Of a DNA stretch of 57,494 bases, positions 27,091-57,140 are shown one piece after another. The notes below the pieces were generated by a model, which was not told the DNA's origin, did not search any database, and saw nothing but the letters and a program-made list of their open reading frames with translations. The DNA is taken from contig CALUPN010000001.1 of the NCBI GenBank assembly GCA_944322625.1, positions 1 to 57,494 of the forward strand, written 5' to 3'. Both the position numbers and the translations under genes were made by a program. This stretch comes from Candidatus Gastranaerophilales bacterium (GTDB lineage Bacteria > Cyanobacteriota > Vampirovibrionia > Gastranaerophilales > Gastranaerophilaceae). Numbering within the stretch: position 1 is the stretch's first letter; each line of letters starts with the position of its first letter.

Positions 27091-27145
27091 ATTTGTTTTA
27101 CTTTTTACCGATTTCGTGCTATCATAATTCGCAAGGAGTGAGATA

Positions 27146-28369
27146 ATGAAAAAAGATTTGGATAAGATTTTATCCAGTACATTGAAAACATATTTTATCA
27201 TTTTAATTGGAATTGTCGTTGTAAAATTATTCGGATTCGATTACTTTGGATTAGACACTAGCAACGAAATAATCATCATGATAGATAATTTTATAAAAAC
27301 GTTCCATTTGAAATTAGTATGGTATGCTATTACATTATATATTTACCAATACGTGATATTCAGTATTACTTGTGTTGATAACAGTAAAGCAATGAAATTA
27401 TACACACTATACACGTTACCAATAGCAATTACCATACAATTGTTAAAAACACAAATTAATGCACCATATTTATTTGCAATTATTGATTTATTATGGTTAT
27501 TTATGTTTTCTATATTGTATATTAAAATGGTAAAAAGAAATAAAATTGAAAAGTATAACGTAAGTAATTATTGGATATATTGTGTAGTCAATATGATATT
27601 TCAATTACTAAGTATGTTTATTAGAAACATAGATATGTCTGTGGATTATAATAACTTTATAATGTCGTTTGTTGGTAATATTGATTATATAATATTATCC
27701 ATTATGTTTTACACTTACTTTTATTTAAAAGGAGGTAAGTCATTATGGGATGGGGTAGTTTCTTCTTTTTCGCACCTACGGACTTTATTAAGAACTTTGC
27801 CAACAAAGTTGCAAAAGTTTTATCTAAATAATAAAGCCAAAAGTAGATTCGATAAGATTTCGGACTGTATTTACATTCCATTGTTCTTACTTTGGAATGT
27901 TTTTACTTTATTAGTAATCTTATTCGTAGCAACGTTAAATCATACTTTTGTTGAATGTATTATCATCGCCACTAGTTTTTGGATAAACAAGAAAACATTT
28001 GGCAAGCCATTCCACATGAAAACAGCACTTAGTTGTTTTATGGTTTCCAATCTTACATATTATTGTTTGAATAGAATCACGATTCCGAATGGAATATCGT
28101 TAATAGTCTCCGTTTCACTTGGTATCGCATTATGTTACATGACAAGCAAATTTGTAAAGAGCAAGAAGTTATACCGTGGTATGTCAATCGAGGAATACGA
28201 CAAAGTTGTATTACCTTCATATTCTATAAACAGTATCTACTATGAAATTGGTAAATTGTTTTATGTAGACCGTTATAGCGAACAATGGATTGCAAACAAG
28301 TTATCCTATTCTATCCCTAGCATTCAAAAGAAAAAGTATGAGTTGAAAAACAAAGTGAAAGGACAATAA
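27146..28369 (+). CDS. Polytopic membrane protein with AgrB-like peptidase domain and C-terminal HTH
   Basis: FGKPFHMKTALSC has the AgrB His-x6-Cys dyad spacing; YSEQWIANKLSYSIPSI HTH. Confidence 0.7.
   Translation: MKKDLDKILSSTLKTYFIILIGIVVVKLFGFDYFGLDTSNEIIIMIDNFIKTFHLKLVWYAITLYIYQYVIFSITCVDNSKAMKLYTLYTLPIAITIQLLKTQINAPYLFAIIDLLWLFMFSILYIKMVKRNKIEKYNVSNYWIYCVVNMIFQLLSMFIRNIDMSVDYNNFIMSFVGNIDYIILSIMFYTYFYLKGGKSLWDGVVSSFSHLRTLLRTLPTKLQKFYLNNKAKSRFDKISDCIYIPLFLLWNVFTLLVILFVATLNHTFVECIIIATSFWINKKTFGKPFHMKTALSCFMVSNLTYYCLNRITIPNGISLIVSVSLGIALCYMTSKFVKSKKLYRGMSIEEYDKVVLPSYSINSIYYEIGKLFYVDRYSEQWIANKLSYSIPSIQKKKYELKNKVKGQ
27745..27831 (+). CDS. Nested 28-aa AgrD-like peptide MGWGSFFFFAPTDFIKNFANKVAKVLSK
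   Basis: Perfect AAGGAGGT RBS 8 nt upstream; alternative frame inside the AgrB-like gene. Confidence 0.6.
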   Translation: MGWGSFFFFAPTDFIKNFANKVAKVLSK

Positions 28370-28436
28370 AGTCCTTTTTATTATGCTTTTTTATGTTTTA
28401 TTTTAGATAAAATTATATTAGAAATGAGGTAAATTT

Positions 28437-28772: not shown

Positions 28773-28811
28773 ATATTTAAGGGAAGTAATCCCCTTATAG
28801 TTTATCACATT

Positions 28812-33121: not shown

Positions 33122-34204
33122 TTAATCTTCTCCTTTTTCTTTTACTTTTGTTAATCTGTATGTAATACTATCTTTCATATAATTTTCATATGTCTTTGGA
33201 TGGTCTTGCTTGAATAATTTTTCGTCAAATTTCTTGCTTACCGTCCCACTTAATTTATATGTTCCATATTGTACTTTTGTTTCATTTTCACCAAGCAATT
33301 CCATCATTTTTTCTTTAATTGAACTTTCCACAGTTTTTAATGTTTTTTCTAAATCATCAAGTGAATTATTCTTACGAATAGTATTAATTTCATCTTGTAA
33401 GAAACTTGCATAATTTATCAGAGAATCTAAATCATTATCGTTACCTGGTTGTGTTTCTCGCATGATGTCTAAGTATTCTTTGTCTTTTATTTCATCAAAT
33501 CTTGGTGAAACTCCATTTTCAATATGATTATTCCACCACTCCTCACAATATTTTATGATATCTTCAAATGTCATTAATTTTCCATTTACATCAACAACAA
33601 TATCTTTTAATTTCTTAACAACAATGATTGTATTTTTTTCTGTTGGCTTGAATTGTTCAGGATGATTGTAATCGTCATCTTGCAAGAAGGCACATATAAA
33701 CACGATACGATCAATACCTTTTAAGTAAGCATATTCTGCACCTTGTAACAAATATGTAATTGGAACATTATTGTTTTCCCATTCCTGTGGCTTTGAACTC
33801 GTCTTACATTCTATAATTGCCGTAAGTGTTTTCATATCATCTTCTGTACAAACGGCGTCCATTACACCACCGAAAACGTTGCTATCGTTTACAAAGTTAT
33901 TATATCTATATGTATCAATGTTATTTCCATAGTATTCTTCAATACTCATTGTATTTGGAAATTTTTTTGCAATTAAATCAATAAGTTTTGGCTCAATTGC
34001 TTTACCAGCCAAAGTATATTTGGTATCTTCAAACGGTAATTTTACTAACTTTGTAATTTCTGCCCAAGCACCGAATGGTGTTTGATACGGATTAAGTCCT
34101 AGAACACTAGCCATTCTATGACCAGTGATTCTAAGTCTTTGTTTTGGTGGTTCATTCAATACAATATGTTGTCTATCTTCCGAATAGTTCCATTCCTTAG
34201 CCAT
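33122..34204 (-). CDS. YqaJ/lambda-Exo-like exonuclease
   Basis: ASVLGLNPYQTP, G..IEP, D...IECKT. Confidence 0.85.
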   Translation of the reverse strand: MAKEWNYSEDRQHIVLNEPPKQRLRITGHRMASVLGLNPYQTPFGAWAEITKLVKLPFEDTKYTLAGKAIEPKLIDLIAKKFPNTMSIEEYYGNNIDTYRYNNFVNDSNVFGGVMDAVCTEDDMKTLTAIIECKTSSKPQEWENNNVPITYLLQGAEYAYLKGIDRIVFICAFLQDDDYNHPEQFKPTEKNTIIVVKKLKDIVVDVNGKLMTFEDIIKYCEEWWNNHIENGVSPRFDEIKDKEYLDIMRETQPGNDNDLDSLINYASFLQDEINTIRKNNSLDDLEKTLKTVESSIKEKMMELLGENETKVQYGTYKLSGTVSKKFDEKLFKQDHPKTYENYMKDSITYRLTKVKEKGED

Positions 34205-35048
34205 TATTTTCTACCTCTTTTAATTTCTTTTTTACTTTTAAATCAATTTCAAGAATATCTGCCGAACTTAATGTTCCGCTCATAAGTTTATTTAATGTTG
34301 GTGTTCCATATTCTTGATTACCAGTTAATTCTCTAATTTTCATAATATTTTCGCATACCGCTTTAATATCTTCTTCATCACTAGGTTCTTGTTGAACTTG
34401 TTTTACTACTTCTTGCTTAATTTCCTCTTTCTTTTTTTCTGGTACATATACAGGTACTTTTGGTTTTGATTTTTCTTCCGGTTCTTCAATCTCTTCCTCC
34501 AGAACATCTTTTGGTGTAAAGTTTTTATAGAACCAATTTCTAAACGCCATTGAACTTGCACTAGCAACCGCTTTGTCAATGGTATCACTACCTTGTGCAA
34601 TTGTGATATATTCTTTGCATGCTCCTGTTTCTAAATCTGTAAATGTTGCAACAGTTTTAACAGTTGCTACATGAATCGGAAGTGAGTTTGCAGGTTTTGT
34701 TAGTTCTTTATCAAATTGAATTAAATCTGTTGTTTCAAATGAGAAGTCAAGACCAACTTCAATTGCTAATTCTTGAATCGCATCATAGAATTGATCAATA
34801 CTATAATAATCTCCACCACCCAAAATCTTTGGTAATTCTTTATCTAGTACGAATTTTCTTTCTCTTACTCTCTTTCTAAATTCATTTAACTTTTTAAGTA
34901 ACATAACTTTCATTGTTCTTTCATCATATTCTTTTACTTCTTCCACCTTTTTACTTTCTCCTTTCATTTTATTTACCATGTCCATTAATTTTTCGTTCTG
35001 TTCCATGGACGTTTGTAATTTTTGCTCTAACTCTTGTTTTGTAGCCAT
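34197..35048 (-). CDS. ERF-like ssDNA annealing protein (internal start)
   Basis: Own promoter and AAAGGAG RBS before MATKQ; G.D..DKAV..A.S.A.R motif. Confidence 0.7.
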   Translation of the reverse strand: MATKQELEQKLQTSMEQNEKLMDMVNKMKGESKKVEEVKEYDERTMKVMLLKKLNEFRKRVRERKFVLDKELPKILGGGDYYSIDQFYDAIQELAIEVGLDFSFETTDLIQFDKELTKPANSLPIHVATVKTVATFTDLETGACKEYITIAQGSDTIDKAVASASSMAFRNWFYKNFTPKDVLEEEIEEPEEKSKPKVPVYVPEKKKEEIKQEVVKQVQQEPSDEEDIKAVCENIMKIRELTGNQEYGTPTLNKLMSGTLSSADILEIDLKVKKKLKEVENNG

Positions 35049-36014
35049 ATCTTTTTCTCCTTTCTGTATGTTATTATTGTAGCATAATATATCATAGTAG
35101 TCAATATTTTTTTTGTCATTTTCAATTATTTTTATTAGTTCTTCTTTTTTTGTACTTTTATCAACTTGTAATCCCAAATTGGAAGCAATCTGCAAAAGTT
35201 CTTCTTTCTTATATTCTTCAAGTCTTTTAATACCAAGGAAATCGTTTACCCGTTTGTTTGCTAAGTCAATATACCATTCTTTATTAATATCGTCAATCTT
35301 ACATTGATTTGCATTATCTACTATCGGATTCGGAGGTTGATTCGCCAAACTATCACGTCTACCATCCGGTTTTACTTTTATAATCGCACCACTTGAAATA
35401 TTACCTGCATAGATACGATTATTTCTTTGAAGTTCAATATCTCCATTTGGTGATTCTTGCACGCATTTTTCATAAGTAGAGCCAAGATGTGATATGATTT
35501 GGAAACGAAATATATCATCGCACTTATTAATTGTTTCCTCCGTTGGAATATCAAAAAGTAATTTTTTTAATATTGCTTCGGATACGATCGTCATAGAATT
35601 ACTTTTCAAATCATCTTTAAATTTGTAATGAAAAACGTGTTTTTCTTTATCCCATGTAAATATATGTTTTCCTGTGAAGTTTCCACCTTTATAGTTTACC
35701 TTGTAATCGTTATTTCCAGTCTGTACGATTTCGACGTAATTATTGACATCTCGCATGATTATTTTTACAACTTTATCTTCTTCTAATTCAAGTCCAGTTA
35801 GTTTTTGCCAATCGTCGAGTACTTTATGGGCTTGTTCTTTATATTCTTCATCTACTTCATATAAAATTGCATCTGTGTTGCAGCTAATTGTTTCCAATGT
35901 TGGTACTGTTTTTAAATCATATATTAATTGTAATATAAATAATTGTCCTGTGGTACATATACTAAATCCTTGTAAATTATCATATAAATCATTGAACTTC
36001 GCTCTAAGACCGCC
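34197..36014 (-). CDS. DNA polymerase (family B-like) C-terminal part, in frame with the ERF-like protein
   Basis: GGLRAKFNDLYD...GQL, NTDA motif C, RDVNNY; frame open upstream of track start 35897. Confidence 0.75.
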   Translation of the reverse strand, partial: GGLRAKFNDLYDNLQGFSICTTGQLFILQLIYDLKTVPTLETISCNTDAILYEVDEEYKEQAHKVLDDWQKLTGLELEEDKVVKIIMRDVNNYVEIVQTGNNDYKVNYKGGNFTGKHIFTWDKEKHVFHYKFKDDLKSNSMTIVSEAILKKLLFDIPTEETINKCDDIFRFQIISHLGSTYEKCVQESPNGDIELQRNNRIYAGNISSGAIIKVKPDGRRDSLANQPPNPIVDNANQCKIDDINKEWYIDLANKRVNDFLGIKRLEEYKKEELLQIASNLGLQVDKSTKKEELIKIIENDKKNIDYYDILCYNNNIQKGEKDMATKQELEQKLQTSMEQNEKLMDMVNKMKGESKKVEEVKEYDERTMKVMLLKKLNEFRKRVRERKFVLDKELPKILGGGDYYSIDQFYDAIQELAIEVGLDFSFETTDLIQFDKELTKPANSLPIHVATVKTVATFTDLETGACKEYITIAQGSDTIDKAVASASSMAFRNWFYKNFTPKDVLEEEIEEPEEKSKPKVPVYVPEKKKEEIKQEVVKQVQQEPSDEEDIKAVCENIMKIRELTGNQEYGTPTLNKLMSGTLSSADILEIDLKVKKKLKEVENNG

Positions 36015-36016
36015 AG

Positions 36017-36247
36017 TTAAGTGTACGCATTTAGGGGTAACTTAAGACCAGATTTTAAATCATCATTAGTAAGTCCTAAAGGCTTTAAAAAATCTTCTGT
36101 TAGTTTTCCTTTTTTTGCTTTCATACGCATAGAAAGCAAATTTACATAAGCATCCTTATCTTGTTGATTTCGACTCGAATAACCGTACAATCTTACTAAA
36201 TTAGGATAAAGTGAACTCACATCCCAGTTCTCCAAAATACGTGTCAT
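36017..36247 (-). CDS. DNA polymerase middle fragment (motif A and start of motif B)
   Basis: DVSSLYPN and KLPLNAY. Confidence 0.85.
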   Translation of the reverse strand: MTRILENWDVSSLYPNLVRLYGYSSRNQQDKDAYVNLLSMRMKAKKGKLTEDFLKPLGLTNDDLKSGLKLPLNAYT

Positions 36248-36855
36248 TATTCATCACCCCCATCCTCGACATACTCAAAAGACCATCCAAGATATTTCTT
36301 ATGTGTTTTGCATGATTCTGATATTCCTCCTCGTTTTGTTTTCACACAAAATATACCTAGTGAACAAGAAAAAATACTATCGAATAACAACACATTATCA
36401 TCTTTTTTTGCTATTACTTTTTTTGCTTTTATTTTACCTCTACCTTTAAATCTTCCATCATATTCATATTTATAATATTTCTCAGTGTTTTCTTTATTCG
36501 TTAACCATTGTAAGTTATCAACTCTATTATTTAATGAGTTATTATCTATATGGTCTGCTATTGGTTTATTTTCTGGATTATGGATAAATGCTTCGGCAAT
36601 CACTCTGTTAACTCGTCTATAATAATGTTTACCATGAGCTTTTAAATCAACTTGATAATAACCATCTTTTTTTAAAAGTTGTTTTAATATTCTTCCATTC
36701 TTAGAAGTACCATTTCTAGGTATTGTTTTTATTCTTCCATAGTTACTACATACATAACAATCTGGAGCATCTACAACTGGTTTCCAAATTTCATTAGGCA
36801 AATCTTCAAGATTAAGCCATCTATCAGTATTCACGTCAATATCGATTAATCGCAT
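36247..36855 (-). CDS. NUMOD4-HNH homing endonuclease inserted in the polymerase gene
   Basis: EIWKPV..Y.CSNYGRIK, DHIDNN..NN..NLQW. Confidence 0.9.
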   Translation of the reverse strand: MRLIDIDVNTDRWLNLEDLPNEIWKPVVDAPDCYVCSNYGRIKTIPRNGTSKNGRILKQLLKKDGYYQVDLKAHGKHYYRRVNRVIAEAFIHNPENKPIADHIDNNSLNNRVDNLQWLTNKENTEKYYKYEYDGRFKGRGKIKAKKVIAKKDDNVLLFDSIFSCSLGIFCVKTKRGGISESCKTHKKYLGWSFEYVEDGGDE

Positions 36856-37709
36856 TTGAAATCACATCCGTTATCATATTTATACGTGGTTAGTTTTGCA
36901 CCATGTATTCCACCATGACCCAATTGTATCACACATTCATCATACTGTAAAGATGGTGCTATACTTTCGTAGTTTAAATCATTATGCTTTATAACGTCAT
37001 CTATATAATTTAAGAAAGACTTCGGTATTTTCGATTTATCAACTTGCTTTGGATATACATACTTAAACGGATCATCATGATTCTTTCTTTTTGCTCCCAG
37101 TAACACTGATGTTAGTTTCGCATCAGTCAAACTCATTCCATATTTCAAATCCATTTTTCCAAGTCTTGCAATAATATATTTTGACTTATATTTATTTATC
37201 AACATTTCAAATATTGGAAACAATGCTTGAACATCACAAGTACAGTAATATAGTACTTCCTCATATTGTTCTTTCGTCCATTTTGTTGGTAAATCAAAAG
37301 GAACAGTTGTTTCAGTAATGTTTAACCTTAACGAGCCTTCCAATTCCTTTAAGGATTTCCTAGGAACAATTTCATTGAACAAATCCCACATGATTGGAAG
37401 TTCCATATATCCGCAATCAATATCCCAACCATTTCCTCCACCAATAATGTAATCGCTGACATCTTTTATTTCTTCTGGTGTATATCCCGCAAGCAAGCAT
37501 TTCAATATATACTTATCGTATGCGTTACAGTTATATCCCATAAGAATTGGTTTCTTTTGGTCTAAAAAATTTTGTACGTCATTTGGTAACGAATTATGAA
37601 AAACAAATCTTTCTTTTGTTCTATACGATATAAAAACAAATAGTGTATCGTGGGCAAACACTTCACAGTCGAATCCGTATAAGTTATCTAACAATTCATC
37701 GAAACTCAT
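36846..37709 (-). CDS. DNA polymerase N-terminal 3'-5' exonuclease fragment
   Basis: FDCEVF (ExoI), GYN..YD (ExoII), YC..DV (ExoIII), GGIHG. Confidence 0.85.
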   Translation of the reverse strand: MSFDELLDNLYGFDCEVFAHDTLFVFISYRTKERFVFHNSLPNDVQNFLDQKKPILMGYNCNAYDKYILKCLLAGYTPEEIKDVSDYIIGGGNGWDIDCGYMELPIMWDLFNEIVPRKSLKELEGSLRLNITETTVPFDLPTKWTKEQYEEVLYYCTCDVQALFPIFEMLINKYKSKYIIARLGKMDLKYGMSLTDAKLTSVLLGAKRKNHDDPFKYVYPKQVDKSKIPKSFLNYIDDVIKHNDLNYESIAPSLQYDECVIQLGHGGIHGAKLTTYKYDNGCDFKCD

Positions 37710-37891: not shown

Positions 37892-38042
37892 CCCTCTTTC
37901 TATATGTTCTTCCTTTAATTAGTCCAACACGTTGTTTTCTAGGATTAGTTGGTTCTTTACTAAACCAAATCATTTTTTCTTGTTTTGCACGTTGTTTATA
38001 GTATGCTTGTTTTTCTTTATAATTTGTAAATTCTTGTTCCAT
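37860..38042 (-). CDS. Small basic hypothetical protein
   Basis: AAGGAG RBS. Confidence 0.55.
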   Translation of the reverse strand: MEQEFTNYKEKQAYYKQRAKQEKMIWFSKEPTNPRKQRVGLIKGRTYRKRDVTNVHNDTV

Positions 38043-38129
38043 ATTATTTCTCCTTATCTTGTTTCTTATGTTCTAGCATGATAATGCAAATTGCTAACAT
38101 AATCATAAAAATACTTATGAATAAATCTG

Positions 38130-39548
38130 TCATACATATATCATCTCCCATCCCTCTTTTTTATATGTTATACGTCTATTATTAAACGCACCATTTTTTC
38201 CTTTTAGTATGCTCACGTCGTCATCAAAATCATATACTTTGGCTAACTTTTTATTACCGTACGGTCTTTGGCAACGTCCTACACTTTGAATCACTGTTTT
38301 TCTATCTTTTATCGGGCTAGCCATAACAATATTTTCTAGCATCGGAACATCAAATCCTTCTGCAATCAACGAATATGTTGCTAACAAGTATTTATATCGC
38401 CCACTTCTAAAATCTTGAACAATTTTTTCACGGTCTTTTTTCTTCATTTTACTATCGATTCTAGCACATAAACTTAGACGTTCTTCAAACCATTTCAATT
38501 GGTCAACTCGTTCTGAAACAACAATGGAATATCCTCGTAAGTTTTTACACGTTTCTAATATCAATTTATTCCTATCAAAATTACTCGTTAAATCACTAAT
38601 CAGTTTTGTATAGACAAGTCTATCAGTAACGTCAAAACATTCGTCAGACGGCTTGTATTGTGTCTTTTTCATATACACTCTGGCTGGTACTTGGAATTGT
38701 TCCAACGGAACACGAACAACTTCGTTTCCGTCATAATAACCTACCAGATTATTTTTCTCTTTTTTTAGTTCATATATGACATTACCTAATATTTTTTCTG
38801 TTGTCTTTTGCAAACCGTCGGAACGTGATAATGTAGCGGTAAGACCAATTTTATATCGTGCGTTGAAATAATTTATACAAGTTTCAAACATTGTTACGGA
38901 TTCTGCGTTTGTTGCTAAATGGTGGCACTCGTCAACAATTATCATGCCGAATTCATTTTGTTTTATATTCTCATTTTTAATAACATTTGATAATGTTTGT
39001 ACGGTTGCGAAAACAATATCTCCACTTGAATCACATTTACCTTCTGTTATAGTACTGGTTGAACATACCAAATTATCTTCACAACGTTGTTTCGCTTGAT
39101 TCAACAGTTCTTTTGTATGTGTTAAAAATAAGGTATGTTGTTTTAACTCACTTGCACATTGTAATGCTATTTGTGTCTTACCAGTTCCGGCTGGCAAAAG
39201 TAATATTCCTGTCATGTATTTTTTCACCGCATTTATACATGGCTCTTGGTATGATCGTAATATGATGTTGCTTTGTATATTTCGTTTTGATATAGACGTA
39301 TAATCTTCATAATCTTCAATCTTCGGATGTATATTAAATATATCAGAAAAACAACCGATAGGAAGATATATATTATCGTTATATTTTTCATATAATTTTA
39401 TTGTCCTTGGTGTTTTTCCAAGCCAGAATCCAAGATGTTTCTTTTTCTCGTATTCCGGATTGCTAATTGTTAAAACTTTTTTGCAATAGTCTAATATATC
39501 TTTCGTCGGTTGTTGTATTTCTAATACATTAGATATTATTATCTTCAT
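38130..39548 (-). CDS. SF2 DEAD/DEAH-box helicase
   Basis: PAGTGKT, DECHH, LTAT, EGFD, QSVGR..R. Confidence 0.92.
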   Translation of the reverse strand: MKIIISNVLEIQQPTKDILDYCKKVLTISNPEYEKKKHLGFWLGKTPRTIKLYEKYNDNIYLPIGCFSDIFNIHPKIEDYEDYTSISKRNIQSNIILRSYQEPCINAVKKYMTGILLLPAGTGKTQIALQCASELKQHTLFLTHTKELLNQAKQRCEDNLVCSTSTITEGKCDSSGDIVFATVQTLSNVIKNENIKQNEFGMIIVDECHHLATNAESVTMFETCINYFNARYKIGLTATLSRSDGLQKTTEKILGNVIYELKKEKNNLVGYYDGNEVVRVPLEQFQVPARVYMKKTQYKPSDECFDVTDRLVYTKLISDLTSNFDRNKLILETCKNLRGYSIVVSERVDQLKWFEERLSLCARIDSKMKKKDREKIVQDFRSGRYKYLLATYSLIAEGFDVPMLENIVMASPIKDRKTVIQSVGRCQRPYGNKKLAKVYDFDDDVSILKGKNGAFNNRRITYKKEGWEMIYV

Positions 39549-40350
39549 CTAACTCCGTGAAATATGATTCCAATTTTCCAGTTTTCTTGTTGATGATACC
39601 ATATTCTTTTAGCACTTTTAATGTGTAATCCAAATCGTCAGATAATGATAATTTTGCACTAACTTCTTGTTTAAACTCTTTCAAATCTTGTAATTCTGCT
39701 TCTTTAGATTTTTCATAACATTCAATGTTTTCATTTGTAAAATCAGTTCTAACGTCAAATAAATAAAAGTTCGGATGACACTTAGTCACAAACACATGAT
39801 GGTTTCCATTTTCATCCATTTCTCTTTTATATAAGTCATCCATTTTTGCTTCGAATTCGTTTATCAATTCATTATATTCTTTTACGAACGGATTTTCATT
39901 TCGTTCTTCCTCAATCATTTCATCATAATCATTTTCAATTGTTCTCTCTGCTTTTTCGCAATATAATTCTAATAATTTGTTCATATCTTTTTTCTCTCCT
40001 TTTTCTTCATTCTCTTTTAACCATATCATACCATCGTGTGATGATAGATTTATTCCATACTTATCGATTGTGATACTTGTTTGCTTTAATGTATTTTCTT
40101 CTGCTGGTTCTAACATACTTTTAGTAAAAAACCAAGTTATATCACCAGATGTATCACTCCAATTTTCCAAGCCAATAATATCATCTTGGCTACTAATGCT
40201 CCTTATTGTCGCATATCGTCCACATAAATGACGCATACATCGGGTAAATACTATATCAGGTACCTTGATATCTCCATCAGAATCTGTTCCATATTCTCTT
40301 TCCATATCATCCCAATCACGGATTCGTACTCTATCTCCTACTTTGAACAG
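39529..40350 (-). CDS. Hypothetical protein (FKVGDRVRIRDWDDM N-terminal domain)
   Basis: Frame extends from track start 40305 to CTG at 40350; possible second start at MNKLL. Confidence 0.6.
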   Translation of the reverse strand: MFKVGDRVRIRDWDDMEREYGTDSDGDIKVPDIVFTRCMRHLCGRYATIRSISSQDDIIGLENWSDTSGDITWFFTKSMLEPAEENTLKQTSITIDKYGINLSSHDGMIWLKENEEKGEKKDMNKLLELYCEKAERTIENDYDEMIEEERNENPFVKEYNELINEFEAKMDDLYKREMDENGNHHVFVTKCHPNFYLFDVRTDFTNENIECYEKSKEAELQDLKEFKQEVSAKLSLSDDLDYTLKVLKEYGIINKKTGKLESYFTELDEDNNI

Positions 40351-40746
40351 CTAATCAACATCTCCCATCTCTGCTTTAAAACAGTCTTTTTTTAATTCTA
40401 AATATCCTTTATTTTCAAATGTTTCTCTACTTCTAATCCACGTCGTCCAAAAAACACCTAATTCGTCTGACTTTATCATGATGTAAATATTGTTTCCACT
40501 CCTATGAACGAAACGATCCAATTCATCACGTTTTTTATATATCCCAGAGCCTTTATAATATAATTTGTCGCTAGTTGTATGTTTCGCTTCAATAAACATG
40601 CAAGTACCTTTTTTTGCTACAAATATATCGCATATCGTACCATTAAATCCGGTTGGGAATTTGTATGAAAAATATCCTCTGTTTCTGTAATAACCAAGAA
40701 TTTCTTCTTCCCATTCTTTCCCAACTTCATATTGCTTAACACTCAT
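40351..40746 (-). CDS. PD-(D/E)XK nuclease / Holliday junction resolvase-like
   Basis: GKEWEE...CDIF...FIEAK. Confidence 0.75.
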   Translation of the reverse strand: MSVKQYEVGKEWEEEILGYYRNRGYFSYKFPTGFNGTICDIFVAKKGTCMFIEAKHTTSDKLYYKGSGIYKKRDELDRFVHRSGNNIYIMIKSDELGVFWTTWIRSRETFENKGYLELKKDCFKAEMGDVD

Positions 40747-40886
40747 GTTTTGTACATCCTAACGATTTTATATTTTTACTGTATCTACATTTGATCATAA
40801 ATTGTTTATATTGATAATCATTTTCAAATGTTTTTGAAAACGTTTTTCCAGTTTTTAAATCTTTAAAGTATCCAATCCACATATTC

Positions 40887-41123
40887 TTATCCTCGTTCTT
40901 TCGTTACTTCTCGATTATATTCTTCCATAACTTCATAAGGAATTCCCAAATGATTATGAATCTTTGCCATTGTTTTTTCTTGTAACGGCTTAAATCTTTG
41001 TTTCGTATCAAAGAAATATATAAGTGTACCTGGACAAAGTTCACATATTTCTGCCAGTTTTCTTATTGAACACTCACGTTTTCTTTTTTCCTCAAGCATC
41101 ATTTTATAAAATTCTGTATTCAT
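40887..41123 (-). CDS. XRE-type HTH protein
   Basis: SIRKLAEICELCPGTL; own TTGACT promoter. Confidence 0.7.
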   Translation of the reverse strand: MNTEFYKMMLEEKRKRECSIRKLAEICELCPGTLIYFFDTKQRFKPLQEKTMAKIHNHLGIPYEVMEEYNREVTKERG

Positions 41124-41185
41124 GTTTCCTCCTTTGTGTATAATATATCATAATTACTTGAAATAGTCAATAAATATGACTGATT

Positions 41186-41290
41186 TTGACAATATTTACA
41201 TATTGTTTTATAATTAAATACGTGCTTGATTTAATTTTAGTCATGCACAGTTTATCTCATTTCGAGGATTACTTATGTAATCCTTTTTTT
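41186..41290 (+). ncRNA. Candidate trans-acting sRNA (~41221-41290) with promoter
   Basis: TTGACA-17-TATAAT; hairpin, single-stranded linker, AGGATTAC/GTAATCCT+T terminator. Confidence 0.65.
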
Positions 41291-42104
41291 ATTCGTTTAA
41301 TTTGACAAATATACACATTCCTCTATCTTTTGTGAATGCTTTCTTAACTTTATATTCCACTGTTTTATCAGAAAAAGGTTTATCGAATACGGTTTCGTTA
41401 AAATGTTTCGCAAGAACCAATATTTCTTCATAATCTAATCTTGTTTTGAAGTACAATTCATTTATATACTCAAACAATTTATTATCTCTATCACCAACAT
41501 CGACATGAGTTGGTTTTTTATATGGTTCTTTTTTCTTATCTGTTTTTAGATTAGCATTTTCAAGTATGAATTTTTTTAGCAAATCGTCCATATCAGATAC
41601 ATTTGAATCCGATACCATTTTGTATTTTTTACTGTCTATCGAACTTGGTTCTACGACGATATATCCATCAGTACGAATGTCTATACCTTGATAATTTTCA
41701 AACACATTTGATCCGTTTGAAACATTTTTAAGTTCATCGTCAGTATGATATATGACATGAATTCCGCCACTTGGCGTTTCTTGTATTTTTGTATTACAAA
41801 AGTCATATAAATTGATTTCAAATGGATAATTAGATATGTCATTTAATATTCTATTAAAACTATCAATTCCATTTTTATTTTCATCGTGGACATCTAAGTC
41901 CAAAACAAACAATTCGTTTGGTGTACACGGAAGCCCCCAATTACAATTAGGACAATTTGTGTACCAATAAAGAACTTGCATATAATCTGATGAACAATCG
42001 TTTTGCCAATTCTCAATGATTGGCGTTTTCCCATTCGGTGAAACTGGAAAGATTTTTAATCCTTTATCGATGTAATTTTTTTTAATATATTCCCAGTTAC
42101 TCAT
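41289..42104 (-). CDS. Bifunctional primase-polymerase (Prim-Pol + PriCT-like)
   Basis: FP..PNGKTP, VLDLD, TPSGG.H, IDIR..GYIV.PS, GDRD. Confidence 0.88.
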   Translation of the reverse strand: MSNWEYIKKNYIDKGLKIFPVSPNGKTPIIENWQNDCSSDYMQVLYWYTNCPNCNWGLPCTPNELFVLDLDVHDENKNGIDSFNRILNDISNYPFEINLYDFCNTKIQETPSGGIHVIYHTDDELKNVSNGSNVFENYQGIDIRTDGYIVVEPSSIDSKKYKMVSDSNVSDMDDLLKKFILENANLKTDKKKEPYKKPTHVDVGDRDNKLFEYINELYFKTRLDYEEILVLAKHFNETVFDKPFSDKTVEYKVKKAFTKDRGMCIFVKLNE

Positions 42105-42694
42105 TACTTATCACCTTTTCTTTTACTAAGACCATATTTTACAACCAATTGTGAAACACGACCTGGTGTTATATTAAATTGTTTTGCTATTTCACATTGT
42201 TTCATTTTCTTATCTAACATTTCTTTTAATGTTTCTTTGTCAATTGTTATTCTATGTTTCTTTTCTACAACTTTATTTTCTATATCCGGTTTATAAGATA
42301 AAATATCATTTACATCTTGTTCTGATAATACGCGGTAGTTATAATCACTTTCATTCCATGCTTTTAACGCTTTACTAATTGAATTATATAAAAACTGTCG
42401 TCTTTCTTTATTCAATAACGAATGGATATTATCACGATAAACTTTACCAATACTCTGAATTACTTGTACGTGAACTCTGTATGATCTAACTTTTGAAATT
42501 TTATCACAAATTAATGCTTTTTGTTCCATTGTTAATTGTTCATCGTTATATTGAATCAGATGTAAATAATCAGATATTTCAAAATCACAATTTTGTTGTT
42601 GTTCTGGATTACTATCAATCATATCATCTATTTCATCCAATAATTTTAAAACATTCTGTAATTTTGCTAAAAATAAATTCTTTGTATCATTCAT
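42104..42694 (-). CDS. Protein with C-terminal HTH
   Basis: MKQCEIAKQFNITPGRVSQ. Confidence 0.65.
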   Translation of the reverse strand: MNDTKNLFLAKLQNVLKLLDEIDDMIDSNPEQQQNCDFEISDYLHLIQYNDEQLTMEQKALICDKISKVRSYRVHVQVIQSIGKVYRDNIHSLLNKERRQFLYNSISKALKAWNESDYNYRVLSEQDVNDILSYKPDIENKVVEKKHRITIDKETLKEMLDKKMKQCEIAKQFNITPGRVSQLVVKYGLSKRKGDK

Positions 42695-42781
42695 TATATT
42701 TTCCTCCTTTCATTAATAATATATCATAATACTATAAAATAGTCAATACAAAATAATAAAAAAGAAGGAATTTTTTTCCTT

Positions 42782-43642
42782 CTAATTTGCATTGATAAAT
42801 GGAATTGCACTATCTGTCATTGTTGTTGGTAACTGTCCGTTCCATTTTTCAATAAATTGTTGTGCTATGATTTGATCTGTCAATGATTGTTGCAACAAAG
42901 CATTTGCTTCTGCCTCACCTTGTGCCTCAACTTTTTTCTTTTCTGCGTCAATTTTAGCCTTTTCTAACTGATTCTTAGACGTTTCCACTTCTTGTTCTGC
43001 AACTGCCTTTTGTTCAATTGCTTGATTATATGATTCGCTAAAATCAAAATTATTAATTGAAACTGCTACACTATTAATTCCATACAATGAAATTCGTTCG
43101 TCTAATGTATTATTAATAGCAAGAGAAACATCACTACGTTTTGTAACCAATTCTTCTGCCGTATATTGTGAAATAACTGCCTTGATTGTTTCTTGAATTG
43201 CTGGTTCTAACACTGTTGTTTGATAATTAGTTCCAACAGTTTTGTATAAATCAACCGCTTTTGTTCCGTCAATCTGGTAATTGATAGAAACTTTGATGTT
43301 ATTTACAATTTGCAAATCTTTTGTTGACGTTGAAAATGCTTCCTCGTTTTCATACTTTTGTACCTTTACATTTATTTTTTTCATATCCTCAAAAGGTAGT
43401 TTGAAAACAATTCCTGTATCAGTTGTACTGCTCACAATTTCTCCAAATCTAACTTTGATCCCAACTTCGCCAGTTTTAATTGTTGTGAAACAACCGAAAA
43501 CGTTAAGTAGTAGGAATAAGAAACCAAGCAACATTCTTGGTCTTGCTTTCCACGAAATTGTTTCCGCATCTAAATCGATGCGTACACCTAAAACTAGAAC
43601 TGCTAAAATTGTCAAAATAACGCTTACAATAATTAAAATCAT
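42782..43642 (-). CDS. SPFH/prohibitin (band 7) membrane protein
   Basis: GEVG...FG, TKDLQ, AIEQK.VAEQ, EKWNGQLP. Confidence 0.9.
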   Translation of the reverse strand: MILIIVSVILTILAVLVLGVRIDLDAETISWKARPRMLLGFLFLLLNVFGCFTTIKTGEVGIKVRFGEIVSSTTDTGIVFKLPFEDMKKINVKVQKYENEEAFSTSTKDLQIVNNIKVSINYQIDGTKAVDLYKTVGTNYQTTVLEPAIQETIKAVISQYTAEELVTKRSDVSLAINNTLDERISLYGINSVAVSINNFDFSESYNQAIEQKAVAEQEVETSKNQLEKAKIDAEKKKVEAQGEAEANALLQQSLTDQIIAQQFIEKWNGQLPTTMTDSAIPFINAN

Positions 43643-43684
43643 ATCTCATTTCTCCTTTTCTAAAATATATCAAATTATTTCTTT

Positions 43685-43882
43685 TTAGTCAACATTATTT
43701 TTATTTTCTATATTGAATTTTTGCATATAGTATTCAATTGTCCTATTACCATTTCCAACAAGGCTAAAATCTTTTGTTTCGGTATTGTATGCGAAGTAAT
43801 CACTTCCTTCTTCATATCCTAAAAATTTTCCATCTTCCTTAAAACCAAGCTGTTTTAATTTTTGTAAAAGTTCCGTATCCAC
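43685..43882 (-). CDS. Hypothetical protein
   Basis: GGGGGTGA RBS, GTG start. Confidence 0.6.
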   Translation of the reverse strand: MDTELLQKLKQLGFKEDGKFLGYEEGSDYFAYNTETKDFSLVGNGNRTIEYYMQKFNIENKNNVD

Positions 43883-43924
43883 TCAATCACCCCCTTTCAT
43901 TGTTCTTATATTTCTTTTGCACTC

Positions 43925-44140
43925 TTATTCACAATATTCCTCCATTGGTTCTATTTTTAAATATTCTATTTCATCAGTATATATTTTTGTATGCCAATAA
44001 TTGTCATATTCACCATCACAATCCATTAAAGTATCAACACCTTCTAATATTATGAAATTTTCTTTCATCGAAATTTTTTCTAAATTATGACCGCCAACCG
44101 TTGATCCTGATTTATATTTATATTCATAATAATATTTCAT
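43925..44140 (-). CDS. Hypothetical protein
   Basis: ORF track. Confidence 0.6.
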   Translation of the reverse strand: MKYYYEYKYKSGSTVGGHNLEKISMKENFIILEGVDTLMDCDGEYDNYWHTKIYTDEIEYLKIEPMEEYCE

Positions 44141-44408
44141 TGTAAGTTCCTATTCTTAAATTAAAGTTTCCTACTTGTTCTATCATTTTATTTTGCAATG
44201 CTAATTGTTGCGCTTCTTTACACAATTTTATTTGTGCTTTTAAATAATCTATTAGTTCTTGTATTTTAATTATATCTGGAGTAATAAATTCAACTTTTAC
44301 TTTTTCATAATCATTTTCAACAGCCCATTTTTGTATATCTGAATATTGTTGTAATGTTTTACCATTATTACGACCGCCACATAATAATCTAATATTACCA
44401 GTTTTCAT
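44124..44408 (-). CDS. Hypothetical protein
   Basis: GAGGTGG RBS. Confidence 0.6.
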   Translation of the reverse strand: MKTGNIRLLCGGRNNGKTLQQYSDIQKWAVENDYEKVKVEFITPDIIKIQELIDYLKAQIKLCKEAQQLALQNKMIEQVGNFNLRIGTYNEILL

Positions 44409-44789
44409 TTATTCCACCTCATAAGCCATATTTTCAAATTGTTCTTTTGTTAATATTTTTGATATTTTCATATTCTTGTTTTTTTCTGAATATCTTTTAA
44501 TATTAAATAATTGATTTTCATTTTGAATATAATATATATCAATAAAAACCATACTTATTTCATTAACAAAATCTTTTATTAATAATATATCTCCTAATTC
44601 TATTAAATCCGTTACACTAAAACTAGCATTTAAAACATTTTTCTTTGATACCCAACAAACATTGTGACTATCTTTATCAATTCTTATTGTTCCATATCTT
44701 GTATCTTCTGGCAAGTCAACGATTTTTCTAATATATTGAACCCCATTTTTGTCTTTAAACCGAATATACATTCCTACTTCTAATTTCAT
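44409..44789 (-). CDS. Hypothetical phage protein, paralog of 1707-2072
   Basis: Shared N- and C-terminal motifs. Confidence 0.7.
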   Translation of the reverse strand: MKLEVGMYIRFKDKNGVQYIRKIVDLPEDTRYGTIRIDKDSHNVCWVSKKNVLNASFSVTDLIELGDILLIKDFVNEISMVFIDIYYIQNENQLFNIKRYSEKNKNMKISKILTKEQFENMAYEVE

Positions 44790-44795
44790 AAAACA

Positions 44796-45002
44796 TCAAT
44801 CCCACTTTCTTTTACTTTTATCGTATCTCCATAAATGCAATTTATTATAGTACATTTCATAAATGAACCTTGCTTTCTCATCGATTGTTTTCTTACATCT
44901 TAAACAAGTTCCAAACTTCCTAACATTTTCTTTACTGTTATTGTATGAACAATACGGACACACAACAAATTCAATTTTTTTCATTTCCTTTTTCAATTTC
45001 AC
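44796..45002 (-). CDS. Zinc-finger protein
   Basis: CPYC...CLRC. Confidence 0.65.
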   Translation of the reverse strand: MKLKKEMKKIEFVVCPYCSYNNSKENVRKFGTCLRCKKTIDEKARFIYEMYYNKLHLWRYDKSKRKWD

Positions 45003-45177
45003 TCACCCTTTTTATTTCAAAATTTTCTGGATGCTTTAATTTCTTTTTCATTTTTAAAGCACCTTTCATATCATAAACTGTTGCCTCATCGATATATGGT
45101 GTATAATGATTCAAATTCAATCGTTCATGACGTTTTAAATAAACATTATTCGCTATATGTTTTATCACGCATTTCAT
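44971..45177 (-). CDS. Hypothetical protein
   Basis: Overlapping operon gene. Confidence 0.55.
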   Translation of the reverse strand: MKCVIKHIANNVYLKRHERLNLNHYTPYIDEATVYDMKGALKMKKKLKHPENFEIKRVSEIEKGNEKN

Positions 45178-45448
45178 CGTATTTTATTCCTTTCTGTATT
45201 ATTCTTAATTTTCTTTGCAACATTACGTATTTTCTGCAAACATCGTAATAATAGTCCAACAATATTGTATAGTGTTTCTGTAACAATTCCAAATCGTTTG
45301 CTATATACGGATTCGATATAACATCATCGATATCTACTTCCCCTATTGTATCTCTAAATTCATAATCAAATTTTTCTTCATGATACGGACAATTTTTGCA
45401 ATGGCTATCCAAATCCGTATTGAGTATTTCTGGTATTAATGTACACAT
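45146..45448 (-). CDS. Hypothetical protein
   Basis: TAATG coupling; CKNCPY. Confidence 0.6.
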   Translation of the reverse strand: MCTLIPEILNTDLDSHCKNCPYHEEKFDYEFRDTIGEVDIDDVISNPYIANDLELLQKHYTILLDYYYDVCRKYVMLQRKLRIIQKGIKYDEMRDKTYSE

Positions 45449-45774
45449 TAAATCAATCCTTCACATAACATTTTATCGTGCCACTTATCATATTCATCAG
45501 GTTCACAATTATTCTCCAAGTATTCATCTTCTTTCAATTCATTATAGCACTCTTCACAACAATGTAACAAACGACCATCCCAATTTCTTACAACTGGTAA
45601 TTCTTTATCATCTTCTGGTATAAACAATTCTCCACAACATTCACATCTTCTCATGCAATGGATCGTATCATCAATTGTCCAATTATCTCCATTAGCCTCT
45701 ACCATTTCCTCATGTAATTTTTTAATTTCTGAAAATTCATAATCTTTAATATCTTTTAATTCCATTTTTATCAT
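45448..45774 (-). CDS. Zinc-ribbon protein
   Basis: CECCGE...CCEEC; behind TTGACT promoter. Confidence 0.65.
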   Translation of the reverse strand: MIKMELKDIKDYEFSEIKKLHEEMVEANGDNWTIDDTIHCMRRCECCGELFIPEDDKELPVVRNWDGRLLHCCEECYNELKEDEYLENNCEPDEYDKWHDKMLCEGLI

Positions 45775-45852
45775 TCCTTTCTTCATGATACTAATATACC
45801 ATAATATAATAAAATAGTCAATACTATTAATAAAAAAAGTTAGAAAATTTTT

Positions 45853-47874
45853 CTAACTTAATAAATTTATGATCGTATCCTTTTGAATACTTTCAACAGA
45901 CAAATCAATATCAACTGGAACTTCTCTTGGTACTTTTGTTTCTGTGCCTAGTTCATCATATACTGTATCATATACTGTTACAGTTGGTTTATCGGTCAAG
46001 ATTGCTCCTGATTCTTTCAACAAATTATTCAATTTCAATTGTGTTTTGGAATATGCTTGTAAATAATCGAATACTCCCATTGTTATTTTATTTCTACTTG
46101 ACGTTGATACACTAAGTCCTGCTGTAAAATCATTGAAATAAAATCTAATAGTATCTCCAATGACGATAAATCCGACAATCTTTTGTCTTTCTGTATTCTT
46201 AACAACCATATCTACTTTTTCCAAGATATTGTTTGGATTAATTACATAGTTTCTTCTAATATCTGGTTGAAAATTATCAGATTTTGCAATCACAAATTCA
46301 AATGGAACATCTTTGCTATTATATGTGAACATGTTACATGTCACTAAGAATGCACTATGTCCATAGTTCTTTCCAACATAGAACAACTCTGTCGCACCGT
46401 TTGGTAACTTAGCATCTGTTATATCTCCACTAAACAATATATTAGATGAACTACTTCTATAACTAGCATCCCATCCGAATACTTCTGACTTATTCATTTG
46501 TTTTAAATCCAAATCAACTCGTTCTTCTGTTAATGTCCTAAATGTATTTGAATATGGAATAGTAGAACCATATCTTTCAAGATTTTTCCAATGTATTCCA
46601 TAGACCATATCAGATTCCCTTGGTACTTCCAAGTATGATCCTTGTGGAATATTTCCAGAAAATTGTTTTTCACTTGTAGGTGCGGAATATGTTACGTTTG
46701 ATGGAATATAAATAGTCTTTCCTTTTACTTTTTCGGAAACTCTATTTTCTAGATGTTTTCTGACAATTTCTGTTCTCTTAACAAGTGTTAAAAATCTATT
46801 TTCTCTTCTTTCATGTTTTAACGTACTAACATATGACTTTCCGTTTCTAATACGATAAACAATATTATCATTTCCACCTAACGCATAAAGCATGGCATTT
46901 AAGATACGAATTTCTCTGAAAATCGTTATATCATCAAGTTTTTTAGTTAGTTCTTCATCAGAAATTTCTACTTTTTCATCTGTTAAACAATCTAACACGT
47001 TCTTAGGAAGTGGTTTATGATTATCATCTGCTAGTTTTCTAAGTTTATTTATGACACCATTCAATTCTTTTCTAGTAGAACTTTTTTCACTTGTATTTTC
47101 ATCACATTTTTTTACTTTTAATGCTAAGAATAAATTCTTATTTCTTAAAAATATTGATGATAACTTTTCATAGCCTTTTGGTGTTTTTGTAAGATATGAT
47201 TGAATCATTCCCAATGCCAGTTTTTTATCACTTTTTCTAACCATTTCAATCATTTCTGAACTTTGTATTTTCAAAGTACTTCCAGTTAATTTGAACAACA
47301 AGTATTTGAAAAATTCGTCTGGATTACGAGGCATGATGTTATATTTATCATACAACGTTATCTTAACTTCTCGGTTCTTGATTTCGTCAAATCTATCTTT
47401 ATCGATAAAATCTGATAATACCATGATGTCTTTTACAGTTTGTTCTGACAATGCGATTCCACTTGTAAGTAGATTCATTATTTTATCAGTCAATTCTTGT
47501 TCTGTATATGGACGGATTGAAATAAATTCAATTTGTTCCGCATCAAGTTCTGGAATTTCTAACTTTTCTTTTGGAATATATACCAAATCACTATCATACA
47601 TTCCTAACGATTCGAAACCATAAGTTGTAATATAATGAATCATTTGTTGTGCAATCAAATCTTCAATTGGTGCGTTTTTTACAATCTCAAAATCTTTGTG
47701 AAATGTTTGATTCCATTTTTCACCGTTTTTTCCATACATTTCGATTGCATTTTTTACGGTTTCTTCATCTGCCGTGCTAGGAATCAATAGTCCATACTTT
47801 AAAGCATATTCGTTGATATTATCTGATTTTTCTCCTAAATATCCTTTAAATAATCTTAAAATTTCTTTTTTCAT
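45853..47874 (-). CDS. 673-aa protein: helical N-terminal region plus C-terminal TerD-like domain; candidate RNA-binding partner of the upstream array
   Basis: GIHW...VDLDL...GW...FSGDITDA..PNGATE resembles TerD-family motifs. Confidence 0.6.
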   Translation of the reverse strand: MKKEILRLFKGYLGEKSDNINEYALKYGLLIPSTADEETVKNAIEMYGKNGEKWNQTFHKDFEIVKNAPIEDLIAQQMIHYITTYGFESLGMYDSDLVYIPKEKLEIPELDAEQIEFISIRPYTEQELTDKIMNLLTSGIALSEQTVKDIMVLSDFIDKDRFDEIKNREVKITLYDKYNIMPRNPDEFFKYLLFKLTGSTLKIQSSEMIEMVRKSDKKLALGMIQSYLTKTPKGYEKLSSIFLRNKNLFLALKVKKCDENTSEKSSTRKELNGVINKLRKLADDNHKPLPKNVLDCLTDEKVEISDEELTKKLDDITIFREIRILNAMLYALGGNDNIVYRIRNGKSYVSTLKHERRENRFLTLVKRTEIVRKHLENRVSEKVKGKTIYIPSNVTYSAPTSEKQFSGNIPQGSYLEVPRESDMVYGIHWKNLERYGSTIPYSNTFRTLTEERVDLDLKQMNKSEVFGWDASYRSSSSNILFSGDITDAKLPNGATELFYVGKNYGHSAFLVTCNMFTYNSKDVPFEFVIAKSDNFQPDIRRNYVINPNNILEKVDMVVKNTERQKIVGFIVIGDTIRFYFNDFTAGLSVSTSSRNKITMGVFDYLQAYSKTQLKLNNLLKESGAILTDKPTVTVYDTVYDELGTETKVPREVPVDIDLSVESIQKDTIINLLS

Positions 47875-47901
47875 TTTATCTCATTTCTCCTTTTTATTAA
47901 T

Positions 47902-48333
47902 GTGTCGATAAGTAACAAAATAACCCAAAATTATTTGCCTACTGGCGAAATAGGAACTTACTATGACACTTTTATATAATTTTAAATACCGGTGAGTAAT
48001 CTTATCACTTAACAGGTAATCGCTCTCAAAGCAAAATAGGAACTCACTATGGCATTTTTATAAATATTAGTACCTGAAACTAATTTTCAGTGATGGAGCG
48101 GTATTTCCCGCAGTCTTAAGGAAGTTTCTATGACACTATATTTTTATTTTATGGCGAAGAGTAATAACCATTCTCCATTACTATTTGTTATAAAGGAACT
48201 CTTTATGCCAAAATATAATCAAAATATAAGACGGATAGTAATACACTAGACCACTATTAACCTTTCGGCTAATTGATGGAGTTGAACCATCAGCGTTGGT
48301 TATCAGCCAACAAAATAGGAACTATCTCTGTCT
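47902..48333 (-). ncRNA. Array of five structured RNA units with a conserved covarying stem and variable, partly tRNA-like inserts
   Basis: Units 48229-48333, 48152-48210, 48070-48136, 47987-48054, 47902-47969 share stem-AUA-helix-UCCU-[insert]-UU-helix-C-stem. Confidence 0.85.
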
Positions 48334-48341
48334 ATGTATAG

Positions 48342-48370
48342 ATTGTATCATAGTATAATTTAATAGTCAA
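48342..48370 (-). promoter_or_regulatory. Promoter for the RNA array and 673-aa gene
   Basis: TTGACT-17-TACAAT with TG; predicted +1 at the first unit. Confidence 0.8.
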
Positions 48371-48390
48371 TAGGTTTTTATAAAAATTAA

Positions 48391-48600
48391 TCATTCGCAT
48401 ATATAATTTGTTCTTTCACATGGCTCGTTACGATTTCTATGCGATCTAGCATAAAATGTAGCACCTTCACAAGGATATTCCAGATATGTATATGGATAAC
48501 AGTTTTCACGATTTTCTTTTATACGGTTCATCAATGTTGCAAATAGAACACAAACAATAAACACAATAGCACAAATAATAAGTATTTTTATAATTCTCAT
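48391..48600 (-). CDS. Small membrane-anchored protein
   Basis: AGGAG RBS before MRIIKILII. Confidence 0.6.
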   Translation of the reverse strand: MRIIKILIICAIVFIVCVLFATLMNRIKENRENCYPYTYLEYPCEGATFYARSHRNRNEPCERTNYICE

Positions 48601-48613
48601 ATAATAATATCTC

Positions 48614-50364: not shown

Positions 50365-50415
50365 ATTTACACCTCCTCAAACACAGTTTATCTCATTTTT
50401 CATTTTATAAATCAA

Positions 50416-50970: not shown

Positions 50971-51167
50971 TTTTTATTCCCTTTCATTTCTTCCTCTAAC
51001 TGTTCTTTTGCTTTTTTAAATATATTTATTACAGCATCTACATGTGCTAGCAACAGTTCTTTATTACCGTTATCAATTTCATATATACAAGCAATAGAAT
51101 CAGGATTTGCATTAGTACTCAAATGATTGATGATGATACTCTTTGCGACATCTAATTCTTTATTCAT
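50967..51167 (-). CDS. Hypothetical protein
   Basis: GAGGTG RBS. Confidence 0.6.
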   Translation of the reverse strand: MNKELDVAKSIIINHLSTNANPDSIACIYEIDNGNKELLLAHVDAVINIFKKAKEQLEEEMKGNKK

Positions 51168-51172
51168 TTATT

Positions 51173-51735: not shown

Positions 51736-51738
51736 ATC

Positions 51739-51969: not shown

Positions 51970-51971
51970 AA

Positions 51972-57059: not shown

Positions 57060-57140
57060 TTTATTATCATCCTTCCTTCATTTTGTAATTATATTATACC
57101 AGATTATACCAAAATAGTCAATAGTTTTATAAAAAATTTT

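Follow-up and report, generated by a model that had tools for sequence, protein, structure and literature searches.

The locus and its genomic setting

Between the gene of a 78-aa HTH-like protein and a Prim-Pol gene, the window (the whole stretch of 57,494 nucleotides that was analysed) carries a compact unit composed of a promoter, a 5′ hairpin, an unpaired linker and an intrinsic terminator (Table 1). An earlier note on this DNA had described these four parts and the absence of a reading frame, and the promoter scan, the folding and the ORF search returned the same picture; no ORF was found within 41124–41288. The promoter is the sole 12/12 site among 126 promoter-like sites in 38000–57494. 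The predicted RNA, taken from 41221, folds as two hairpins joined by the 15-nt unpaired linker, and the 115-nt stretch with the gene has a folding z-score of −5.3. The U run of the terminator and the stop codon of Prim-Pol, the convergent neighbour, overlap. The possession of its own promoter and its own terminator suggests that the small RNA is a primary transcript, and the overlapping divergent promoters hint at a possible coupling of the small RNA to the 78-aa protein.

Table 1. Parts of the small-RNA locus, its neighbours and predicted target sites in the window
Feature	Position	Strand	Basis or remark
Sigma-70/sigma-A consensus promoter TTGACA-17-TATAAT	41186..41214	+	promoter scan
Small RNA, ~70 nt, predicted; start put 6–7 nt past the −10 box	41221..41292	+	fold
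5′ hairpin	41222..41248	+	folds; conserved outer pairs (GUGY/RCAC) around a variable inner stem and loop
Unpaired linker, 15 nt, predicted seed, core UUAUCUCAUU	41249..41263	+	folds, conservation
Intrinsic terminator	41264..41292	+	stem 41264–41285 with T run; folds in relatives
Divergent promoter of the 78-aa HTH-like gene	41142..41170	-	−35 boxes 15 bp apart
78-aa HTH-like gene	40887..41123	-	adjoins RNA gene; no Pfam match
Prim-Pol gene, convergent neighbour of RNA gene	41289..42104	-	PF09250
Predicted site, dcm gene (start 50364)	50381..50398	-	18 bp with G-U allowed; private to this phage
Predicted site, 673-aa gene, between SD and ATG (−13..−1)	47875..47887	-	13 nt; kept in L078
Predicted site, SPFH gene start (−10..+1)	43642..43652	-	11 nt; private
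Predicted site over RBS of 80-aa GerE-like HTH gene (28437–28679)	28421..28435	+	15 bp, 2 G-U; family-wide
Weaker predicted site, start of AgrB-like 407-aa gene	27135..27146	+	12 bp with G-U; also in G217
196-aa coiled-coil/HTH gene, head of primase operon	42104..42694	-	main conserved predicted target in relatives; best pairing in this phage 6 bp, site lost
ERF-like gene, own start 35048 inside fused ORF	34197..35048	-	conserved predicted target in relatives; site lost here (5 bp)

The window is a circular phage contig whose ends repeat over at least 50 nt; it encodes terminase, portal, capsid, tape-measure and replication genes, and near-identical DNA is found in sequencing runs from chicken and pig gut. 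No integrase was found among the 70 ORFs of the window, and PF00589 and PF07508 each gave 0/5 in complete relatives of the phage. Bins of related contigs are labelled Erysipelotrichaceae, Bacilli and Clostridia; the rest of the phage's own bin shares just one 22-nt match with the phage, and the family-level genomes of the assembly gave distant Prim-Pol matches only. The phage promoters and the long SD spacers have a seemingly Bacillota-like character.

Conservation of the small-RNA gene

Relatives of the phage were found by sequence alignments, and five metagenome loci were analysed as fragments; an exact 18-nt pattern scan and a single-protein scan of viral contigs gave no match. The RNA unit was present in 56 of the 63 loci with a Prim-Pol relative (identity of at least 38%). 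Of the seven remaining loci, L088 has the unit by model search, two stop at most 114 nt from the match, another is a fragment and belongs to the type with the HTH gene several kb away, and three are distant (38–42%). The RNA gene was also found in 10 of 16 further records; two are fragments that do not reach its position, G220 and G224 have neither the RNA gene nor a clear HTH neighbour, and in G235 and G239, which represent one relative, the gene has been lost downstream of Prim-Pol with both flanking genes intact.

The 46 distinct RNA bodies obtained from 57 records all fold (z from −3.7 to −8.4), and all 46 fold better on the RNA strand than on the opposite strand. The seed core is unpaired with a median probability of 0.98 (n = 37 bodies). 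The linker is the most conserved part of the body while the stems vary freely, the 46 bodies having 30 different terminator 5′ arms, all of which fold. Both promoter boxes are kept in 27 aligned relatives and the spacer between them drifts; the RNA gene and the 78-aa HTH-like gene stay back to back even where Prim-Pol lies 6–8 kb away (G204, G216); in the close strains X5 and X8 the RNA differs at the terminator loop only, or not at all. RNAalifold on a MAFFT alignment gave no consensus pair, since stem lengths vary between relatives; the structural evidence consists of per-sequence folds in place of consensus pairs or covariation counts. As judged from these folds and from conservation, the promoter–hairpin–linker–terminator unit is a conserved small-RNA gene.

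In seven bodies there is no long linker, and UUCCUU is exposed in a large loop instead; in one of these (G204) the loop matches the RBS of the helicase gene perfectly over 14 nt. The RNA model R1, which is sequence-only, misses the loop-seed relatives (0 matches in G218 and G219). In G213, G214, L090 and G236 the terminator loop exposes a second pyrimidine tract (CCCC), complementary to SD-like words, which is possibly a second seed. A minigene (AUG-AGA-UAA) within the RNA was ruled out by its spacing of 0–4 nt to the SD and by variants that break it.

Complementarity to start regions of the phage

The four matches quoted in the earlier note, at the dcm, 673-aa, SPFH and 80-aa HTH genes, were all recovered in place. 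The longest, an exact match of 17 nt (50382–50398), covers −34..−18 of the dcm TTG, just 5′ of the dcm SD; it had been assigned to the unpaired linker, which is right for most of its length, the first 3 nt being located in the 3′ arm of hairpin 1. The HTH site pairs over 13 nt with one G-U (28421–28433), or over 15 bp once a second G-U is counted, and the third U in the seed of this phage is matched by a third A in this site.

The best three exact matches over 96 start regions measure 17, 13 and 11 nt. The enrichment over shuffled seeds on which the proposal of the earlier note depended was found: a best match of 17 nt, or a top-three sum of 41, occurred in 0/3000 shuffles, and it was likewise absent from 3000 AAATG-keeping and 3000 AAATGAG-keeping shuffles, from 6,920 intergenic windows and from 14,444 other windows. 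Three matches of at least 11 nt occurred in 6/3000 AAATGAG-keeping shuffles, 22/6,920 intergenic and 20/14,444 other windows. With G-U allowed, the top three helices of the whole window, at the dcm (18 bp), HTH (15 bp) and 673-aa (13 bp) genes, all lie in start regions, which make up 3.5% of the window. These placements and nulls, together with the comparisons of own and foreign seeds and the orthologous sites described below, leave very little credence for the idea that the matches are chance or copied leaders and that the unit has no regulatory target. That idea draws on the loss of the RNA gene in one lineage (G235/G239) and on the likeness of leaders: 227/2,784 leader windows share at least 13 nt with another leader of the phage, and the SPFH and 673-aa leaders have 18 nt in common, so that two of the four sites are not independent.

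When folding of 90 nt of mRNA was included, the predicted duplex gains were −17.4 kcal/mol for dcm, −11.5 for the HTH gene, −9.6 for the 673-aa gene and a marginal −2.9 for SPFH, which is the doubtful target for this reason. The same calculation gave −13.9 kcal/mol for a 56-aa gene at 1116, and −4.8 and −7.5 kcal/mol for the two lost sites (196-aa and ERF-like genes).

Predicted targets in the phage family and concerted change of seed and site

Three unrelated genes carry the site in the clade of relatives that shares this linker. A site of at least 10 bp was found in 11/15 core-like orthologues of the 196-aa gene versus 0/5 outside the group, in 11/15 versus 0/13 orthologues of the ERF-like gene, and in 6/6 versus 0/7 orthologues of the 80-aa HTH gene, the outside-group counts being scored against the core seed. 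The presence and absence of sites follow one clade of 22 rows (SH-aLRT 92, from a quick tree), so this contrast counts as about one event, and the tests within the group are the better evidence. There, cognate pairing of seed and site was reached by 0/20,000 permutations for the 196-aa gene and by 98/20,000 for the HTH gene, and it was not significant for the ERF-like gene (1,258/20,000); these permutation tests are inflated by the kinship of the records.

Target statistics were computed on 37 non-redundant records, with duplicates, near-duplicates, a few fragments shorter than 6 kb and records without the RNA gene excluded. The record-wide best helix lies in a start region in 17/37 records versus about 1.3 expected by area; shuffled seeds gave 2–5, the reverse complement 0, and shuffles that keep the anti-AUG/anti-SD core 2–8. 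For records with the core seed the figure is 11/17 versus 2–4/17 with foreign seeds, and for the non-core records the signal is weak (4/14 versus 2–3/14). All these start-region counts, including those of the seed swaps and of the exact matches, are lowered because the home-made gene caller missed some true starts (in G213, in L080 and at the ERF-like gene) and the G201 site falls just outside the start region as scored. Exact matches beat the shuffles at p < 0.05 in 16/37 records; in the other 21, many of which are fragments and which include the near-complete G217, G221, G225 and G227, no exact start-region match did so.

Own seeds fit own start regions better than the seeds of relatives do, by 1.36 nt (0/20,000 permutations), and the advantage is still 0.89 nt among the 17 records sharing the core (20/20,000). 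This preference of leaders for their own seed argues against a main target in host mRNA or in the mRNA of competing related phages, where the RNA would serve exclusion and the sites in its own genome would be secondary. We regard such a target as unlikely, for all that the core seed is kept across phages merely 55–75% identical in Prim-Pol, that a shared seed would pair with the leaders of relatives too, and that several near-complete relatives have no strong site of their own. Outside the phage contig, G000 (control 2) has a single copy of the 12-nt site word and G205 and G217 have none; none of the three is a proven host.

Individual records show how seed and site change together. An A-to-G change in the seed of L074 is matched by U-to-C in its site; at another gene, G213 and G223 differ in one seed base and in the site base paired to it; in the sisters G207 and G202 the U run of the seed and the A run of the site differ by the same number. 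In L030, L049, L062 and L068 the site has shifted from the spacer into the codons M-N-E-I with pairing retained, the shortened seed of L080 fits the ERF start over 14 bp, and L065 has a 17-bp pairing with two G-U. Such changes at distant sites, and a linker conserved while the stems drift, are not expected if the RNA acts solely in cis, in the manner of lambda OOP, by full-length pairing with a read-through mRNA that extends out of the primase operon into the HTH gene, since this would need no sequence conservation and the distant matches would be look-alikes. The U run is present on the plus strand only, so minus-strand transcripts may cross the RNA gene, and leaders of the phage are often alike; even so, an exclusively cis-acting RNA seems improbable to us, and cis and trans action could coexist.

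Site variants with one change that retain pairing by G-U number 18 for the core and 2 for other records (758 versus 1,018 start regions), and other one-change variants number 23 and 18, respectively. A single SD-like word, AATGAGGTAA, accounts for nine of the 18 G-U variants, and its retention could reflect use as an RBS instead. That departures of the site favour G-U-compatible changes also bears on whether the shared word is a protein-binding signal, either a DNA operator or the RNA site of a translational repressor, with no RNA–RNA pairing involved. Several HTH proteins are encoded by the phage, and the same GAAATGAGGTAA leader stands before two unrelated genes in many relatives, as such a signal would; a protein site would not, however, follow private changes of the seed, and the word is sense in the mRNAs and antisense in the small RNA, opposite-strand matches reaching 5–9 nt only. 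A protein signal is accordingly a very improbable explanation of the shared word.

The target list of the earlier note was altered by these comparisons. Of the listed sites only that of the HTH gene is family-wide, and that of the 673-aa gene, the RNA-array partner, recurs over 11 bp in L078, which has the sole orthologue found. The dcm and SPFH sites are private to this phage: none of 7 other dcm-like leaders (3 of which are just 29–35% identical) has the former, and none of 8 further SPFH leaders has the latter. Long private sites exist elsewhere as well (19 bp in G201, 14–15 nt in L069/L070). The suggestion that the RNA coordinates accessory genes does not match the pattern of the family, in which the conserved predicted targets are the 196-aa, ERF-like and 80-aa HTH genes. 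As for the trans-acting repressor proposed there, its antisense relation to start regions is borne out by conservation and by matched changes, and its repressive action is deduced from the positions of the sites.

Proteins encoded by the predicted target genes

The 196-aa protein is predicted to consist of long helices and a C-terminal HTH (pLDDT 85), with weak HTH matches; a fold search with the model gave nothing at E 0.001 or better. It falls in one unnamed viral cluster, and its gene has its own promoter. The 80-aa protein resembles GerE/sigma-4 HTHs (a weak GerE match, E 0.004, and HTH look-alikes), and the ERF assignment is weak, with E 0.004 below the cut-off. Roles as regulators for the HTH-type targets and as a recombination protein for the ERF-like one are put forward from these similarities. 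A type I antitoxin was ruled out, the conserved targets not being small hydrophobic peptides.

The gene of the AgrB-like membrane protein (27146–28369) follows the lysis genes and is the immediate upstream neighbour of the 80-aa HTH gene. No Pfam or PHROG family was found for the 673-aa protein. Between its gene and a promoter at 48370, the minus strand of 47900–48370 contains five repeats with an RTTCCT core, about 75–120 nt apart, and five similar words precede the orthologue in L078.

Comparison with known systems

Trans-encoded bacterial sRNAs possess a promoter, a conserved unpaired seed, an intrinsic terminator and several RBS targets. The RNA described here shares with them its own promoter, the intrinsic terminator, the lack of an ORF, the conserved unpaired seed and the distant start-region sites that change with the seed (in the core clade; weakly outside it), and it differs in that a single 57-kb phage genome contains both the regulator and its predicted regulon and that the predicted duplexes are long and nearly perfect. 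To our knowledge, the characterised phage RNAs that control genes of their own phage are few, mostly single-target lysogeny switches of enterobacterial phages found by genetics. The closest systems include the C4 antisense RNA of phages P1 and P7, with which the P4 CI RNA is grouped. C4 governs an antirepressor locus of temperate phages; phage P1 itself does not integrate.

No Rfam family matches the RNA, the C4 model included: at gathering score the window gave only 4 tRNAs, and a search of 8 loci returned nothing with E of 1 or less. In the excerpts of PMC5320573, C4 is a phage-encoded structured RNA of about 70–80 nt that pairs in trans with an mRNA of its own phage, partly over ribosome-binding sites, and RNA and target vary together between related phages; the present RNA resembles it in all these respects, the pairing here being predicted. 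According to the same excerpts, C4 has three stem-loops, pairs via the loops a′ and b′, is released by RNase P from a longer precursor, and has its role in lysogeny and immunity. In contrast, the predicted folds here consist of two hairpins and one linker seed; the RNA gene has a promoter and a terminator of its own, its predicted targets are several, dispersed and exchangeable, and no integrase was found in its phages.

The excerpts of PMC12197685 describe P22 sar and lambda OOP as short RNAs that silence regulatory genes of the phage itself, which is the likeness to the present case, sar blocking translation initiation of ant. They are antisense to an overlapping or adjacent transcript and have one target each, unlike the RNA described here, whose conserved sites lie 1–15 kb away and on both strands. 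The RNAs 24B_1, PreS, VpdS and DicF of Proteobacteria phages are, in the same excerpts, similarly stand-alone and pair in trans over short stretches; they are Hfq-linked and target mostly host genes or one phage gene, and those parts of PMC12197685 describe for them no covarying set of own start regions. By analogy, the small RNA would work like C4 and sar, yet it lacks two defining features of C4, the Rfam match and, in its predicted fold, the three stem-loops.

Literature searches, at the level of titles and the opening parts of abstracts, gave no description of this small-RNA family. PMC10690425 presents 10,006 candidate viral RNAs from IMG/VR; three seed strings are not in the supplementary files searched, which are a part of the set, and the RNA structure may be catalogued there without targets. 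The small-RNA gene is, in our judgement, real and constitutes a new family.

Proposed mechanism

The reading that we favour, with a probability of roughly 0.7, is that the small RNA would pair in trans with start regions of its own phage and block initiation, and so slow the output of regulatory and replication genes after a delay. Transcription from the consensus promoter by the RNA polymerase of the host would begin soon after DNA entry, and the hairpins on either side of the seed would shield it and display it for pairing. At 11–18 bp, duplexes that cover the SD, the spacer up to the start codon or the first codons would have sufficient length to form chaperone-free. As the RNA accumulates, it would come to restrain, with a delay, the gene at the head of the primase operon together with the ERF-like and the GerE-like HTH genes. 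In the HTH and ERF sites the G-U pair sits on a G of the SD-like GAGGU, so that one sequence could serve both the ribosome and the RNA. Because the seed is the counterpart of a commonplace leader, A-rich and with an AUG, a few mutations would suffice to recruit or release a target. The phage of the window has kept the HTH site and lost those of the 196-aa and ERF-like genes, and it has likely recruited dcm, SPFH and the 673-aa gene.

The unit observed here, conserved, complementary to start regions and changing in step with them, probably represses translation of several targets, namely regulatory and replication genes of the same phage, to which individual strains have added recruits of their own. 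If this is right, multi-target RNA control of replication and regulatory genes would operate in phages in which no integrase is found, targets would be gained and lost over short evolutionary distances, and the RNA would offer a minimal scaffold of about 70 nt for retargetable repressors. The natural compensatory changes name seed and targets beforehand, so reporter tests are possible without phage culture.

More tentatively, and with odds a little short of even, the RNA may define a stand-alone RNA regulon, in which, across a large family of integrase-free gut phages, one RNA times the programme of its own phage by covering many starts together, a programmable switch that needs no chaperone. 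Its near-generic anti-leader seed would let genes join or leave by point mutation, and entire clades would have moved the seed from the linker to a hairpin loop (G204); it would then exemplify a widespread and as yet undescribed level at which phages regulate themselves.

Additional features of the window

The dcm gene (48614–50364) is in two pieces around an HNH/NUMOD endonuclease ORF (49326–49847); the split possibly marks a self-splicing intron, for which Rfam gave no match at gathering score. The DNA polymerase gene (34197–37709) is likewise in pieces, around a NUMOD4-HNH gene (36247–36855), and its last piece continues in frame into the ERF-like gene; this latter gene has a promoter of its own and starts at 35048. 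On the minus strand, the promoter TTGACT-17-TG-TATAAT/TATATT recurs in at least 8 places within 35056–57411.

A 14/15 copy of the seed at 28799–28813, the only other match of the RNA model in the window (E 0.015), lies beside a short hairpin upstream of a minus-strand tRNA-Cys; it could be a further site on a tRNA precursor, or chance. The window contains five tRNA genes, at 3544–3857 and 28696–28772, and one of them is a tRNA-Ile with the anticodon TAT, which is rare in bacteria.
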